Positions 56,615-64,000 of a DNA stretch of 64,000 nucleotides are shown piece by piece. The stretch is from contig CM039000.1 in the NCBI GenBank assembly GCA_017499595.2, positions 496,001-560,000 of the forward strand, read 5' to 3'. Under the pieces are notes generated by a model. It was not told the DNA's origin, did no database searches, and was given only the letters and a program-made list of their open reading frames with translations. The translations under genes were made by a program, and so were the position numbers. This DNA comes from Psilocybe cubensis. Its lineage: Eukaryota. The first letter of the stretch is position 1. Each line of letters begins with the position of its first letter.

Positions 56615-58874
56615 GATTGAGATTTAAAAGTGGGTGGATGAAGAAGTTTTAAAAAACTGAAAAGAATATCGCAACGTTAGCTGACGAGCTCAAAGACGAC
56701 GCAGGAGAAAAGACACACCAAGTGGATGAAGATTTCTTGAAGTCGTGAATGAATCAAAGGACCAGCCTAAGACTGCACAAGAGAGATGCATGGTCAGCAG
56801 CAAGCACGGCGATGACTAGGCTTGTTGGCTACTCACTAAGTTTGTTAGAGCACCGGGCTTGGGGAAATTTGACAGTGGTACCCATGGTTTAAATACTTTG
56901 GTGGGTATCCCCGAATAGGGCTTGATTTGTATATCGTCGGGGTTCTCACTGTTTCAGCTCTTAGCGCGGAAGCATGGCAGCAGGGCTGTGATATCCATCA
57001 TGACACCATACTTACCCCTCCGCCACACAGGCTTACTGCCATAACATCCATTCTTCAACGAGCTTTTTGGAATTATAACAAGCTACTCGTCTAATTGACT
57101 ATAATATAATGACTGACTTAGTGTTCAAAAACAGGACCCCTATCGATGCATACGCAAGTCAAAGCAGACGTTCACGGAGGCTCACAAAATGAAGGAACAT
57201 GTGGCAAAACAGATGCGGATAATAGACCATTTTCTGATCATCAAAACACTCCTGACTTGCCAAGGTAAACATAGCTTTCATAGCTCCCGGTGCTCCAACG
57301 GCGGCGCCTGGCGCATTTTCTAACTTCGCGCTTCGAGCGGAGCGAACCACGGCGCTGGAATCATGATCATGATTTTATCTCAACGATGGAGTATGTAACT
57401 GCGAAGGCTGACTAGACATCAATGGACGCGCAAACCTGCTTTTTGCTAATTGGCTTTCCTTGGAACCGTTTGACAGGTGAAGGAGGACTGAAATTACAGT
57501 CCCTGGCCGACAAATTCACGTCTCGGTTATTTCGGTACTTTGCGTCTGTCGAAATGCACGCAGCTTTACAATGCGCATCATTGATAATAGCACAACCGGC
57601 TCTAATAATGCGCAGGGTGTAAAGATGTATTTTTCTGTCAGCAATCAGCGATCAGCAATCAGGCTCCAGGCTCCAGTGTTGAAGATTGAATAAAGACGGT
57701 CTCACTGAGCACAGCATCCAAAATGAAGCAGTAAACTGCTTCACTCCGACATAAATCCCCTGCACAAAAATCATGAGTTGTGATGGCAACTACTATGGCG
57801 CAACTGTTCCACTTCCAGCCGTCTCTATTTTTGCCCGCGAAATTTTGACTTTTCTGGGTACACGCTTACCGGTCAAGTCCGTATCGAATGGAGAGTTTCA
57901 AACCGCAATCATACAGAAATTAAAATAATTACTGCATTGCGCAATGCGTGGCTTGTATCGAGGCGTCTGATGATTTTCCGACAGAAGAAGAAGCAGAGAC
58001 ATTCTGACTTGGAACAATAGGTGTTGTTCCTGCAAGTCGGCATTGATTACGTCTGATGCTGGGAACACCGTGAACTTTGGGTCAGGGCTTCAGTTGAGTG
58101 GCATTGACCTTCGGGTCAGGCGGAAAGATGTAGTCTATTGATTGAGGGGTCGTCGGTGTTAAGCGCTCGTACTCATCCATGCTGTTTGCCTCGAAGTGCG
58201 GGTACCGAATTCGTATTGCTAAGCACTTCTTAGTGCACAAAAAAATTCTCAAAAGAAATGCTCAGATAGAAGAACACATAATCATACAATATGAAAGTAT
58301 CCGTAGATAATCAAGCTAAATAAAATGAGCACAAGGACGCTGTTAAAGTCACTTAAGTGCGATTCTTAAAATTTAAAACTTTGAACTCTGCCTCGCAAAT
58401 TAGTACTTTCCGAGTTAAAATTGCTCTCCTCGTCCCGTTATGCTTTGCTTTCTCCGACTCGGATGCCGAATCTTCCATAAATATTTTCGCAATATCACCT
58501 TCAAGCTTGAACTTGAGCTTGACCGGTTGACCATTGAACCTGGACACTCAGTTTACTAACATAGAAAATGAGCTTTCCTTGAACTTTCCTTGAACTTTCC
58601 TCTTGGTTTTTTATGATTCGTGGCCATCTTCTTTTGTAGCCTGCCCAGTGGCAAATCATGTTAAGCTCTAGTGCTAAGTACGAGTGCCCGACAGGATAAT
58701 TTCCATTTTTGTTATCGTGTCTTTATGAGGTCATGATCACGAGCTCTGAAGATGAAGTTCAGCATCCTCTCTGCCTCTTACCACCACCATCCGCAGCGAT
58801 CAAGCAGGCGCCTCCACACATTCAATAGCTCCTCAGACTTCAAACTTCCAGTCGCTCACATATTCAAAATAAAA

Positions 58875-59162
58875 ATGCCGCACCAGCTAAACCACGACAC
58901 TCACGGCTACTTGGCTGTAACATTCTCCCCCAACTCATCGTTCCTCAACGCCCCATCGAGCCTGATCAATGCTTATCCGGGATTGCAATACCAAGGCCAA
59001 GTCGGCGAGCTAAGCGATGTGCATCTTTACAGCATGCCCAAAGACATCTGGCTGAGCGCTCGGGACGATGTTCTGGGTGGACTCAAGAAGGATGGCGACG
59101 TTGTCTACGTGGAGGAGCAGGTTCCAAGACAGCGCGTGAAGCGGGGCGGAGATGAACTGTAG
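58875..59162 (+). CDS. Stand-alone kexin/furin (S8B) prodomain-like protein, 95 aa
   Basis: AAAATG context; YQGQVGELSDVHLYSMPK..VVYVEEQVPRQRVKRGGDEL then TAG; no catalytic domain follows. Confidence 0.75.
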   Translation: MPHQLNHDTHGYLAVTFSPNSSFLNAPSSLINAYPGLQYQGQVGELSDVHLYSMPKDIWLSARDDVLGGLKKDGDVVYVEEQVPRQRVKRGGDEL

Positions 59163-59521
59163 TATTTCTTGAAGGATCTTATTCATGAATTATCGGTGTA
59201 CTTGTAAGTTGATTCCGTATACCCTTGTCGTATCTGGGATATGCATAACTTATTCCTTGTCTCTAATAGTATTTTTGAACATGTATACTATAATATACCA
59301 TCTAATAACGGCTGTTGCTTTTTACGAGCCTCTTTGCGTCGTATGTCGGGTATACAACTGCATTCATCAACTGGCAAAAAAATTGTTGAAGTACCGTGAA
59401 CTGCATGGTCTGCTTAAAGCAGGGTTTACTGTTGGAACTCATTAACAGAATGTGGAAATAAACTCCGCGACGTTCACGAGTCCAGTTCGCCCAACCATAA
59501 AGAAACGAATGGAAAAAGGAA

Positions 59522-59625
59522 TGCCCCCTGCAAGGCTCGAACTTGCGACCTCAGGATTGCGTGAGTTGAACTCACTCATAGGATTACTATGAGACCTGCG
59601 CTCTAGCCAACTGAGCCAAGGAGGC
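59522..59625 (-). tRNA. tRNA-Met(CAT), elongator type, 30-nt intron
   Basis: GCCTCCTTGGCTCAGTTGGCTAGAGCGCAGGTCTCATA[intron]ATCCTGAGGTCGCAAGTTCGAGCCTTGCAGGGGGCA; A and B boxes; T-run terminator. Confidence 0.95.
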
Positions 59626-59807
59626 TGTGCTACTCATCTTCTAACGAAACATCCCGGCTGGCGTTGGACGTCAGGATAGAGTCAAACAAATTCTTCACCG
59701 TCAGTACAACATCTGAACGAGTTTAACATAAAGTATTTAGTTGAAGGTCCTGTTGGGATTCTCTCGTGGTCCAAAAAATCATCTTTCACTCAGAAACAAA
59801 AAGCAAC

Positions 59808-59912
59808 TGCCCCCTGCAAGGCTCGAACTTGCGACCTCAGGATTGCGTGAGTTCTTACTCACTCATAGAGTAACTATGAGACCTGCGCTCTAGCCAACTG
59901 AGCCAAGGAGGC
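59808..59912 (-). tRNA. tRNA-Met(CAT), second copy, 31-nt intron
   Basis: Mature sequence identical to the first copy; different intron; T-run terminator. Confidence 0.95.
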
Positions 59913-60253
59913 TGATGATAGCTACCTCATGACGGTGTCCATCGGACGGCCAGGTAGATATAAGCGCCCAACACTTTATTTATAGCGAAGTCTGATATTC
60001 GTTGGACGAGTCCACATTCCAACACAAAAAGGCTTATAACATTCCCCTGGTGATCGACCAGTTATTCATGGTCAATTTTACTCAACATGCTGTAAAATGC
60101 AGATTGGAATTCATATAATTCAATAAAATTACTTGAGAGCTCATACAGTAGTATATGTACTTGCAGAACAAACGCCCAGAAGAATACTGACATACTGACC
60201 TTGACATAAAATCATGTAAAACTATTAATTAATGTTCTGTTCGTAGACAGAAT

Positions 60254-61531
60254 TTATATCTTGTTAAAGGACCACCCGGCCCATCCATCTCTTCCGCCAA
60301 TAGCTTCTCCCGAATCTAGGTTATACTTATCCGCGCGAAGGCTTTCGATAATAGCTCCTGAAATAACGGCAGCAGCCAGCGGTGCCCAAGATGCTGCGAT
60401 ACACCGGAGCGGCCCATGTCCAAACACAAAACCCATAGACTCTTCCCGCTCCTGAGGTAAACCTTCCAGTTGGGTGTCGTGTCGTGAATGCCTGAATTTT
60501 TCTGCATCCAATCCCCACACATCTTGGCATCGCAAAAGTCTCTCGACGTCCGCGTGGTGTTTCCGTCTGGTCAATGTGTTGTCTGGTTTAGTCCATATAT
60601 CGATGAAAGATGGGCACCATGCGCGTCGTCGTACTCTGGCAATCCGTTTTGAAGGTGGGTGCAGTCTCATTGCCTCGTTGACGACCGATTTGATAGATAC
60701 ATGACGAGAGAGGTGTGGTGCATCCTCCCCTAATTGTTTCTCTCCTCGGAATGCATCTTCAGATGGCGACGAATTAAACGTGCAGAATTCTTCGCAAACG
60801 GTCTCATCGTTGTACGAATACGCAACCGTAGTTGCCACAACTCTCCAAAGGGTCTCCCACGCGGGCACCACAAAATTGAGAGGATAAGGAAACTTCTCCT
60901 CTTCGGCGCCAACGAGTTCGGATAGATGGTTTGAAAGTTGTTCCAAAAGTGTTGCAGGTATAGGCTCTGGCCGCTTGGACAGTGCCCAAAGTGTCGTAAT
61001 ATTTTTTGCAACAGTGCAGACGTCAAGATATGAAAATGAGTCGATGGGTTTGTCCACTCGAAGTAAGCCGACGAGCACGACGATGAGTGTGACGTTCTGG
61101 ATGAAAGAGTCAAATGGGATGCCCGGACTTTCTTGAGATGACTGATCCAATTGTGTTATTTGCCATCTCGCTGCCTCTAATGCAATCCCTTGGAAATGGG
61201 TCCAGCCTCTTCGCTTAGCACTAGTGAGGAGAGACTGCGCCTGTGTGACAAATTCCTTGTGTGTAGCAGGATCGGGACTGACGAAAGTATTTGAAAGATT
61301 AAGAGCGCGAACCAGCCTTTGGTTTGAATCCGCTCGCTCCTTGAGAAGGGTCGCAATGTCGGCGTTAGGAGGATTGAGGACAGCTTTCATCTTGAGCAAG
61401 ATATACTGGTATGCTGGTGTACCCTCAGGCTGACCATTTGAATTGCTGATGAAGATACGTGGTGCAGAGAAGTAAAGCGCCGTCAGGGTAAACACCGACG
61501 CAGAAATGATACAAAGTGTGAAGAAATCCAT
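60254..61531 (-). CDS. Atypical compact cytochrome P450
   Basis: N-terminal TM anchor, ExxR (NEAMRLHPP), heme motif FGHGPLRCIA; 425 aa, intronless. Confidence 0.8.
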   Translation of the reverse strand: MDFFTLCIISASVFTLTALYFSAPRIFISNSNGQPEGTPAYQYILLKMKAVLNPPNADIATLLKERADSNQRLVRALNLSNTFVSPDPATHKEFVTQAQSLLTSAKRRGWTHFQGIALEAARWQITQLDQSSQESPGIPFDSFIQNVTLIVVLVGLLRVDKPIDSFSYLDVCTVAKNITTLWALSKRPEPIPATLLEQLSNHLSELVGAEEEKFPYPLNFVVPAWETLWRVVATTVAYSYNDETVCEEFCTFNSSPSEDAFRGEKQLGEDAPHLSRHVSIKSVVNEAMRLHPPSKRIARVRRRAWCPSFIDIWTKPDNTLTRRKHHADVERLLRCQDVWGLDAEKFRHSRHDTQLEGLPQEREESMGFVFGHGPLRCIAASWAPLAAAVISGAIIESLRADKYNLDSGEAIGGRDGWAGWSFNKI

Positions 61532-62833
61532 GGAGAATGGGTTATGCTATATCTCCACTCGCTTCACTGTCCTTTTGAACAACGAATAAGCGCCTCAATG
61601 TACCTTCTAACTAGGTTGAAGAAGGTCGTGGAAGGTCTTTTCTTATCCTCATAGCATCGAACGTTCTGGAGTGATATCCGCAGCCTGGAGAAATAAGAAT
61701 CGCAAATGGCTTGTCCCGTGTCAACATTCTCGCAGTCCATCAAACTTAGTTACACAGCTTTACCAAATAGGCGCCCGTCCAGCAAGGCTTCATATTCAAC
61801 GATTTCCATGTTCGCATTGGCTATAGTGTAACTTTCTACACCTCAGGAGTTGTATTTAACATATATACTACCCATATTATTGGCTTAATTGACTTCATAC
61901 CTCGATAACATGTCGGTACGGTGTGTTAATGTCCGATGTTGTGGCATGCAGTGGCGGCGGGTCTCCACGACCAGATTAGATACATCTAGGACACGCCGGC
62001 TGCGGCATACGTACGCCCAACCAATAATGTCATGAGGCTCTATGTGCGTGAGTTCTTCATGTACGATCGGAACGGACGGTGTGAGCTAAAGGGAGTGTGC
62101 TATGCAGAACTGTTGTTGATCATGAAGGCGGCAGAGATATTGAAGGTTAGCAGGTTGACTCCATTCAACAAAAATACAAATCAACTTAATAGATTGGGTT
62201 TGTCCTTGGCTGTACTATTTGGTTGATAGCCAAAGAGTAATCTAAACAATGTAATCTGACAATTGGATGCTAACTGAGGCCCACCCAATATAAAAGATTT
62301 GAACATACGACGGAATATGTTCGACGGTAAATATCGTTTTATTAGTTAAAGTAGGCCAAACAATCCAGCGTTTTGTAGATGTTTTCTGTTTTCTCAGGAC
62401 AGGTCCACTCTTGTCACCATTTTGCGAAGCAGTGTAATATGATGGTAGGTATTATTGTGCACTTCTCAGCAAGTAACTCTGCATCTCTCTCGTTTAAATT
62501 CATATAGTCCTCGTTGCGTAGAGTGTAGTATGCAATATAGCCGTTCAAAGAAGGTCCGTTTGAGTGCGGGCATTCGATTGATATACAAACCTCAATTAAT
62601 TCCGGTGCAATATGCGATTTGCACATTCGAAACGAATCTCATCGCCGTTAACATGAACATCGACTGTCATTTAAAAGACGGGGGATATCTAATAAATATC
62701 TAAAAGCGAGAACATCCGAGGTCGTGATGATGAGTGCAGTAAATATACATATGGTGGACATAAAAGAAATGAAGCTCATGACAGAAAACGTAACCACAGC
62801 AACTACTAAGGGAACAGAAGGAAACCCTGTTGT

Positions 62834-64000
62834 TCAAAATTCCTTCGTTGGCATCGAGCTGTAAGGTTTCTTTTTCAAGACACTCGGAATCAAAATAAGA
62901 ACGCTGCACAGAGCGACCACAATCATTTGTAGAACGAGGCCGAGGTTGTCTACGTGATTTCATATAGGTCAGTCATTTGATGGTAGAAAGAAGCGGTACT
63001 GAATTCTTACCAAGCAAGATTCCTAAATTTCCAGAAAGATACTTAAGTTAGCTTGATAATTTATCTGAAAGAGCAAGTGCTTACCAAAGGGAGGGTTCTC
63101 CACAAACAACCCTCGAATAGTCGGCATCGTCAGTATAATCGTCAACGGCAACACCACAATGCCTTCTCCCAAGCTTTCACCGGCCATAACAAGCATTGTG
63201 ATATACGCCACCAGAACCGTCAAGCCCCAGTTCACAATGAACAACAGGAACGTATACATCTTTGCATTCACCGTCCTCCTCAGACCCAGGAACGTATTGC
63301 GGGACTGGATCAGCGTCCCGTTCACGATGGACTCTGTTGGCGTCTCTATTGACTGCGGTGCAAAGTTGTTGACAGGGTCAGCGAACACGGCCTTGATAAT
63401 CGGCAGCGAGGTGTTGTCGTTGGTGTTGATGACGAAGAAGTCGGAGCCGCTGTGGTAAAAGTCGAATGGATACCAAAAGAGTTGGTCATAGACGCGTTTG
63501 GAGCCTAATTGGGCGGTTGCGATGTCAATGGAATGCGTCTTCATGAAATGTACGAATCTTCATCAAGTAACGTCAGCGCCGCACTACAATTGAACAGGAC
63601 TTCAAGACATACCCAGTAGTTTTGTTGGAACGTTTGTCCAATTGGTAAAGGTCTTGCGGATCGTACGTGTTTTCCAGGTTACTTTATAGGCGTTAGTCAA
63701 TCTTCAAGTTTACATCATGGATACGGCCACATACTTGTCAATGTATATATTCAGAGGCACATTCGGCAGTCCGCAGGGAGATTGGCTTGCATCATACGTC
63801 TCCGCTGGTGTTAAGAGGAAGCGTCCGCATGCTCCGACAACCCACTGTACTTCGAATGTTCGCCCAGGAATATCAATTTCAAAAATGTGCCCCAGGAAGA
63901 AGATCTGCAGTACGTTAGCAAAAGGTAGTCATATTAAAACACCTAACCACGTACTCCATCTTGTTTCCCGTTCAGAATATCGCTTTGATACGTCCCTGCT
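62834..64000 (-). CDS. DUF4436-like membrane protein (5' end outside window)
   Basis: Spliced: ..WYPFDFY..LRRTVNAKMYTFLLFIVNWGLT..LPLTIILTMPTIRGLFVENPPFG|ILL|DNLGLVLQMIVVALCS..; TGA at 62834. Confidence 0.7.

Follow-up and report, generated by a model that had tools for sequence, protein, structure and literature searches.

A probable kexin-type prodomain fold in a short, stand-alone protein family of Basidiomycota with a conserved multibasic C-terminus, encoded in Psilocybe cubensis

Several subtilisin-like proteases (subtilases) are accompanied by small stand-alone proteins that imitate their propeptides; such inhibitors include Pbi2, PoIA1/2, Arabidopsis SPI-1, TgMIC5, and SUB1-ProM, as two sources describe (PMC6993865; bioRxiv 10.64898/2026.05.05.722857). 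Here we describe a gene of Psilocybe cubensis located at 58875..59162 on the plus strand of a 64,000-nucleotide stretch of contig CM039000.1 (contig positions 496,001 to 560,000; hereafter the window), which encodes a 95-residue protein resembling the prodomains of kexin-type (S8B) convertases. Stand-alone propeptide-like regulators of subtilases are known as a kind; new in this case are the S8B type, the predicted lack of a leader, and a distinctive C-terminal motif.

The MEROPS I9 proteins (Pbi2/I(B)2, Pleurotus ostreatus PoIA1/PoIA2, and SPI-1) are described as small, separately encoded propeptide mimics, the C-terminal residues of which enter the catalytic cleft. Pbi2/I(B)2 targets the vacuolar proteinase B and is called “a small cytosolic protein” in the title of a paper cited in bioRxiv 10.64898/2026.05.05.722857; it is thus cytosolic though its target is lumenal, and PoIA1 comes from an agaric. 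What the I9 proteins mimic are propeptides of S8A (subtilisin/proteinase K-type), and their C-termini are not multibasic, whereas the mushroom family is S8B-like, and the Inhibitor_I9 profile (PF05922) matches none of its 94 aligned members at E<=0.01; what it shares with I9 is a small, independently encoded product with a propeptide fold. The apicomplexan SUB1-ProM and TgMIC5 are also conserved, separately encoded, propeptide-like proteins of the same topology, and they potently inhibit a specific subtilase (PMC6993865). They differ from the mushroom gene in having signal peptides and sharing the compartment of their targets, and SUB1-ProM adjoins subtilase genes, which the mushroom gene does not. 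Endogenous stand-alone propeptide-like inhibitors are known for S8A proteases, and none was found for the kexin-type S8B proteases in the literature searched. Metazoan S8B convertases do have endogenous inhibitors, proSAAS and the 7B2 C-terminal peptide, which act via a basic substrate-like segment. Set beside the mushroom family, these are secretory, restricted to metazoa, and have a fold unrelated to prodomains.

The closest described structures are the prodomains of kexin/furin-type proprotein convertases (PF16470; for example the PC1/3 prodomain, PDB 9fid, 9fie, and 1kn6). The PC1/3 prodomain is the best match of the P. cubensis protein both by structure and by profile; it has a GQ[VI]G.L motif at the same place, and the extended C-terminus of the mushroom protein, like that of these prodomains, carries [KR]-x-R-x-K-R exactly at the end of the prodomain. 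In crystals of furin with the PC1/3 prodomain, the P1, P2, P4, and P6 residues of the prodomain tail sit in the substrate cleft, and wild-type free prodomains are both inhibitors (sub-nM inhibition constant) and substrates, since an internal multibasic secondary site, found in most furin-like convertases, makes their inhibition transient (PMC12405487). In contrast to these prodomains, the P. cubensis protein is encoded alone, without a signal peptide, catalytic domain, or P domain, and scores below the Pfam gathering cutoff. None of the 94 aligned family members has an internal R-x-[KR]-R for secondary cleavage, and beyond the KR the chain continues for 3-5 residues, (G)0-2-D-E-[L/F].

The gene and its parts are as follows, with positions given in the window.
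58875..59162, plus strand: coding sequence of 95 codons plus stop, intronless, belonging to a conserved Basidiomycota family of about 90-110 residues (sequence, homologues, profile).
58752..58874, plus strand: in-frame extension, most likely 5' untranslated region and not coding (open frame, unlike the extensions of homologues, not signal-like).
58902..59120, plus strand: prodomain-like domain (predicted structure in two AlphaFold2 models and Foldseek, with 9fid_D/F/E as best PDB matches).
58995..59012, plus strand: GQVGEL motif, residues 41-46, the most conserved core motif (conservation in both family alignments; aligns with GQIGSL of the PC1/3 prodomain).
59127..59144, plus strand: multibasic R-Q-R-V-K-R, residues 85-90, interpreted as positions P6-P1 of a kexin/furin-type site (conservation, PC1/3 alignment).
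59145..59159, plus strand: C-terminal G-G-D-E-L, residues 91-95, a short acidic-hydrophobic end of low confidence (family tails; predicted local distance difference test score, pLDDT, of 52-53 over the last block).

The open reading frame begins with ATG at 58875 and ends with TAG at 59160-59162. Its product includes GQVGELSDVHLYS and YVEEQVPRQRVKRGGDEL and finishes with RQRVKRGGDEL, the stop codon being 5 codons past the KR of the multibasic motif. The frame is free of stops from 58737 on, and a second in-frame ATG is present at 58752 (start MKFSILSASYHHH...), 41 codons before 58875 with no stop between. The sequences favour 58875 as the start, because the few longer gene models share no similarity in their N-terminal extensions; those of three longer homologues are not alike. 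Neither start yields a signal-like hydrophobic stretch on the Kyte-Doolittle scale averaged over 9 residues: for the extension from 58752, the best mean is 1.43, and the hydrophobic run comprises only 6 residues. With a family profile built from 94 members, the 95-residue frame is the single match in the window (E 2.3e-35). The 99 window frames of at least 110 residues contain no match to Peptidase_S8 or the P domain (E<=1e-5), and the 26 plus-strand frames of at least 45 residues at 59173-63998 contain none either (E<=0.01). The sequence-only reading had described this gene as an intronless frame ending in RVKR-GGDEL, free-standing, lacking a signal peptide from either ATG, and followed by tRNA genes rather than by a protease domain; the sequence itself, the Rfam and Peptidase_S8 scans, and the relatives described below bear out each of these points. 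It is almost certainly a real conserved gene.

A word-based search revealed 15 homologues of 63-154 residues (E 5e-58 to 2e-9, 42-81% identity), all colinear with the P. cubensis protein. The named ones belong to Psilocybe cyanescens, Galerina marginata, Marasmius oreades, M. fiardii, Ephemerocybe angulata, Mycena chlorophos, and Abortiporus biennis, that is, to Agaricales plus, with Abortiporus, Polyporales; the P. cyanescens homologue is 81% identical and also has 95 residues. In the alignment of these homologues, which was not selected for any motif (hereafter the unselected alignment), all 15 end with ..[DE]EL right before the stop, and G41, V43, G44, L46, D48, V49, R87, R90, E94, and L95 are invariant. 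Its profile, used for an exhaustive HMMER search of 1.84 billion representatives, retrieved 179 clusters at E<=1e-3, 107 of them at E<=1e-10 and 5 at E<=1e-30. Among the best 150 of the 179 clusters, 149 are 50-252 residues long, and most of the family falls at about 90-110 residues. One supposed relative, P0108 (6905 residues), was discarded as a false positive composed of 16 repeats scoring 1.8-2.7 bits each, with a bacterial-adhesin-like composition; the family counts given below refer to 162 proteins with P0108 left out.

A second alignment (hereafter the motif-selected alignment) comprises 94 of the 121 members bearing the basic motif, namely those of 80-125 residues, 27 having been dropped for length; since it was selected on this motif, the invariance of R87 and R90 within it is by construction. 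G44 is present in 92 of its 94 members, 81 have no cysteine, and the motifs are kept down to about 30% identity. An N-terminal motif, L-D-[HY]-x-x-N-x-Y, is conserved in the family as well. No relative was found to carry a catalytic domain among the best 150 of the 179 clusters or in the word-based searches for longer proteins; in the latter, longer or fused relatives were retrieved neither with the single protein (0 of 78 candidates at E<=1) nor with the motif-selected alignment (0 of 7999 candidates at E<=10), each being a weak negative. Two longer forms were nevertheless seen with the domain at the C-terminal end, P0123 (252 residues, match at 189-248) and an Atlas cluster of 243-residue Basidiomycota proteins, which could represent either gene-model fusions or a genuine longer form.

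In the Atlas, the protein's own clusters (141, 59, 56, and 98 members) are labelled Basidiomycota, and all are named “hypothetical protein”. The literature searched (subscription journals were outside its scope) described neither this family nor a stand-alone prodomain protein of kexin type; PF16470 was unmentioned in it, and the “GGDEL” papers among the matches listed were unrelated by title. The family consists of previously undescribed, Basidiomycota-wide, small, leaderless proteins joined to no protease.

Most of the 94 members of the motif-selected alignment start 8-14 residues ahead of the first strand. Because a 9-residue hydrophobicity mean of at least 2.5 within the first 40 residues is reached by only one of the 94, and this stretch is the strand itself, the family is predicted to be without a classical signal peptide.

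The AlphaFold2 models obtained with the two alignments agree with each other (pLDDT 82.2 and predicted template modelling score, pTM, 0.70 with the unselected alignment; pLDDT 80.3 and pTM 0.65 with the motif-selected one). Both contain a strand at residues 10-17, a helix at 27-32/33, strands at 38-42 and 49-55, a helix at 56-72, and a strand at 76-82, and both are of low confidence from residue 83 on. In Foldseek comparisons with PDB, ranks 1-3 for both models are taken by 9fid_D/F/E, the PC1/3 prodomain in complex with furin (E 1.1e-3 to 4.4e-3, template modelling (TM) score by target 0.70-0.75, root-mean-square deviation 2.4-3.4, 22-23% identity), with 9fie and the subtilisin prosegments 3cnq, 1spb, and 3whi at lower ranks. 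When the profile of the motif-selected alignment was compared with PDB sequences, the top three matches were again PC1/3 prodomain chains (E 0.014-0.017, 19 bits), aligned in register with GQVGeL on GQIGSL and RaKR on RSKR, the last four prodomain residues.

The Pfam S8_pro-domain family (PF16470) matches the P. cubensis protein with E 9e-4 and 20.2 bits, residues 36-90 being aligned with positions 22-79 of the 79-position profile. It also matches 8 of the 94 aligned members at E<=0.01 (best 1.8e-4) and is the only Pfam family matched by more than one of them, the others, including FeS_assembly_P and HMA, being matched by single members each. With the single protein as the query, phmmer found nothing in PDB sequences at E<=10, and NCBIfam returned only noise, including a weak CopZ match. 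Among the structural look-alikes in the Atlas are S8 proteases carrying a prodomain at the N-terminus, a kexin cluster from Ascomycota (TM by query 0.65), and an I9-bearing bacterial S8 cluster, the latter as a structural look-alike only (TM by query 0.57); the named feature-based neighbours are “Fervidolysin N-terminal prodomain” clusters at 0.79-0.81, which serve as leads only.

In the models the prodomain-type fold is well supported, and a specific kinship with S8B prodomains is probable, as are the two taken jointly. The sequence evidence for homology is marginal, and we regard homology as probable rather than certain because the Pfam score is below the cutoff and the Foldseek E is only about 1e-3. 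The prodomain resemblance proposed from the sequence thus stands in so far as PC1/3 comes first by both structure and profile and R-x-K/R-R closes the domain at its C-terminal end; it does not extend to the Pfam cutoff, the precursor context (signal peptide, S8 domain, P domain), or the internal secondary site.

The C-terminal motif of the family is sharply defined. R-x-[KR]-R occurs inside the last 12 residues in 121 of the 162 members and [KR]R in 132; the spacer between KR and DE[LF] ranges from 0 to about 3 residues. Most members have [KR]-x-R-x-K-R followed by 0-2 mostly Gly residues and then D-E-[L/F], and in the motif-selected alignment 81 of the 94 members have K/R at P6 and 92 have K at P2. 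The tails following the motif (n = 121) are GGDEL in 23 proteins, DEF in 19, DEL in 9, GDEL in 6, and GEL in 4, with many singletons; their length is 3-5 residues in 111 cases. Of these 121 proteins, 76 finish with L and 35 with F, 104 have E as the penultimate residue, and 77 have D as the antepenultimate one; over the whole family, 92 of 162 end with [DE][DE][LF]. The 41 proteins without the motif are mostly truncated or read-through-looking gene models, or near-variants such as KLAKR and HLTKR. A ubiquitin-like modifier, with RGG and a DEL extension, was considered for this C-terminus and rejected: the fold is ferredoxin-like, not beta-grasp, and the GG is not conserved (DEF 19 and DEL 9 of 121).

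At P1', P2', and P4', the cleavage sites of fungal Kex2 show an enrichment of D/E and small residues (PMC2515848). Judged from their residues, KR-DEL, KR-DEF, and KR-GGDEL fit this primed-side preference, and the whole C-terminus reads as an optimal kexin site displayed on the prodomain body, a reading that would explain the “DEL” more simply than retrieval to the endoplasmic reticulum (ER) does.

The best explanation overall, to which we give a probability of slightly above 0.4, is that of a leaderless, stand-alone, S8B-prodomain-like protein that inhibits or regulates a protease of kexin type in a substrate-like manner; it would correspond, on the S8B side, to the I9 inhibitors Pbi2 and PoIA1. 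That Kex2 is inhibited or chaperoned is purely what we infer, and the kexin-directed role taken for itself stays tentative. The extended [KR]-x-R-x-K-R C-terminus would lie in the S6-S1 pockets, as in prodomain-protease complexes, with the acidic-hydrophobic tail (G)0-2-D-E-[L/F] on the primed side, and the protein would act as a substrate-like, tight-binding inhibitor or regulator; alternatively, this bait may be clipped, giving a product inhibitor. Because the family keeps the P6-P4-P2-P1 pattern and is without the secondary cleavage site, a stable rather than a transient inhibitor would be expected. Since there is no ER-entry signal and Pbi2 offers a precedent, a cytosolic guard or regulator, comparable to cytosolic Pbi2 acting toward lumenal proteinase B in yeast, would be the most economical setting.

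Several findings weigh against this explanation. The active site of kexin is lumenal while the family has no signal peptide, and direct contact is topologically unexplained. The variable spacer between KR and DE[LF] speaks against fixed contacts with the primed subsites and in favour of a C-terminal motif of its own. As for the kinship itself, no Foldseek match reaches E<=0.001, and the ferredoxin-like domains of AHAS/ACT, HMA, ribosomal S6, and Lrp/AsnC lie within a factor of ten of the top E; the E of the profile-to-PDB comparison is only 0.014, and its three matches are one protein in three constructs. The PF16470 score of 20.2 bits is lower than the curated gathering cutoff of 25.5, and 86 of the 94 members have no match to this family at E<=0.01. 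Neither the best 150 of the 179 family-profile matches nor the two word-based searches for longer proteins yielded a kexin, and no S8 gene occurs near the 95-residue frame within the window.

Some of these findings would suit a small cytosolic or nuclear ferredoxin-like protein that has no link to proteases, its prodomain resemblance being a convergence of folds. Its basic stretch would then serve nuclear localisation or binding, and DE[LF]-COOH would be a short linear motif recognised by another domain. The missing signal peptide, the variable spacer, the failure to retrieve any kexin within the searches just named, the closeness of ACT, HMA, S6, and Lrp/AsnC to a top Foldseek E of about 1e-3, and the matches of single members to FeS_assembly_P and HMA in Pfam and, weakly, to CopZ in NCBIfam are all consistent with such a protein. 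We nevertheless consider it rather unlikely, as profile and structure independently choose the PC1/3 prodomain as the best match, the alignment stays in register from GQ[VI]G.L to the very last KR of the prodomain, PF16470 is the sole recurring Pfam match, and the motif is specifically [KR]-x-R-x-K-R, with P4 R and P1 R invariant in the unselected alignment and P6 basic in 81 of 94. An inhibitor or escort of some different, cytosolic subtilase would keep the protease link and accord with the absent signal peptide and a generic S8-prodomain-like fold. Fungal NLR-type or cell-death proteases with an S8 domain exist and may be such targets, and Fervidolysin-type and I9-bearing S8 clusters occur among the Atlas look-alikes. 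The multibasic P6-P4-P2-P1 pattern, however, is the hallmark of S8B specificity (PMC12405487), PF05922 matches none of the 94 aligned members, and no candidate partner is present in the window, so that a target of this kind seems distinctly improbable.

The fold and the RxKR motif are those of a lumenal prodomain, and one can suppose that the protein enters the secretory pathway by an unrecognised route or through an unannotated upstream exon and acts there on Kex2 in trans, as chaperone or inhibitor, within the lumen of the ER or Golgi, with -DEL as its retrieval signal. The in-frame upstream ATG (MKFSILSAS...) and the DEL ending of 52 of the 162 members, 11 of them with [KHR]DEL, speak in favour of this. 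Most members, however, begin 8-14 residues before strand 1 with no hydrophobic leader, the N-terminal extensions are not conserved, and that of the P. cubensis frame reaches only the Kyte-Doolittle maximum given above, so that secretory entry appears very unlikely, and the chaperone role suggested from the sequence is, if placed in the ER, hard to reconcile with the absent signal peptide. Nor did -DEL hold up as an ER-retrieval signal, given the 35 of 121 ends in F (DEF/GEF/TEF) and the many in GEL, EEL, or DDL. The same tails, together with the missing signal-like stretch, the GDEL end of the P. cubensis protein itself, and the occurrence of [KHR]DEL in only 11 of 162 members, place the family outside the ER-resident K/HDEL class. 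A decayed KEX2 fragment or a gene-prediction artefact could be suspected from the short frame, the lack of any name beyond “hypothetical protein”, and one homologue evidently misassigned as “P-loop NTPase”. This can hardly be entertained: the short form is found again in 179 clusters, in which the start region, the core, and the position of the stop are conserved, its motifs survive to about 30% identity, and no remnants of a catalytic domain lie downstream. The one-off truncated KEX2 fragment, by which the sequence-only reading would have fallen, is effectively refuted by this conservation.

A bolder version of the kexin-directed explanation, which we regard as unlikely, would make the protein a dedicated, universally short, leaderless kexin-prodomain paralogue of basidiomycetes, the first stand-alone prodomain-type S8B regulator, offering a full and optimal cleavage site (P6 to P3'/P5') as a bait from the cytosolic side. 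If true, it would imply either a cytosolic dibasic-specific fungal subtilase not yet recognised or a new leaderless route to a Golgi convertase.

The surroundings of the gene include the following tRNA genes.
59522-59625 and 59808-59912, minus strand: two tandem tRNA genes (Rfam RF00005, 50.9 bits each).

Their exons are identical, and their introns, of 30 and 31 nucleotides, have diverged. Default ARAGORN misses both. With introns allowed, it assigns them to Ala(CGC) and places the intron within the anticodon; on visual inspection, the pair in the acceptor stem is C3-G70, not G3:U70. The intron sequence TATGAG is complementary to the loop sequence CTCATA, and therefore a canonical 37/38 intron would give the anticodon CAT (Met). 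A minus-strand frame of 430 codons (60254-61546) converges on these tRNA genes; it has no Pfam match at E<=0.1 and contains FGHGPLRCIA, which by eye is like the cytochrome P450 heme-cysteine motif. The identifiable neighbours in the window, CDC73, an inositol polyphosphate kinase, Brix, and an EH-domain protein, look like housekeeping genes. In addition, a plus-strand frame of 920 codons (31445-34204) has an N-terminal match to MLKL_N (HeLo-like, cell-death type; E 4.3e-8), and an open minus-strand frame at the window edge (2-1219) gives an E of 1.4e-15 with CxC2, a cysteine cluster associated with KDZ transposases, which points to a transposon-related gene.

Kex2-type convertases mature fungal pheromones, secreted enzymes, toxins, and repeat-peptide precursors, and their animal relatives furin and PC1/3 are drug targets. 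A natural prodomain-like scaffold without a self-destruct site would mean that mushrooms control their convertases at a newly recognised level, and it would provide a natural model for inhibitors of convertases that last; in the PC1/3 prodomain, stability had to be engineered (PMC12405487). Should the target not be Kex2, the family is an unnamed one all the same, widespread in Basidiomycota and marked by a sharply defined motif at the C-terminus.

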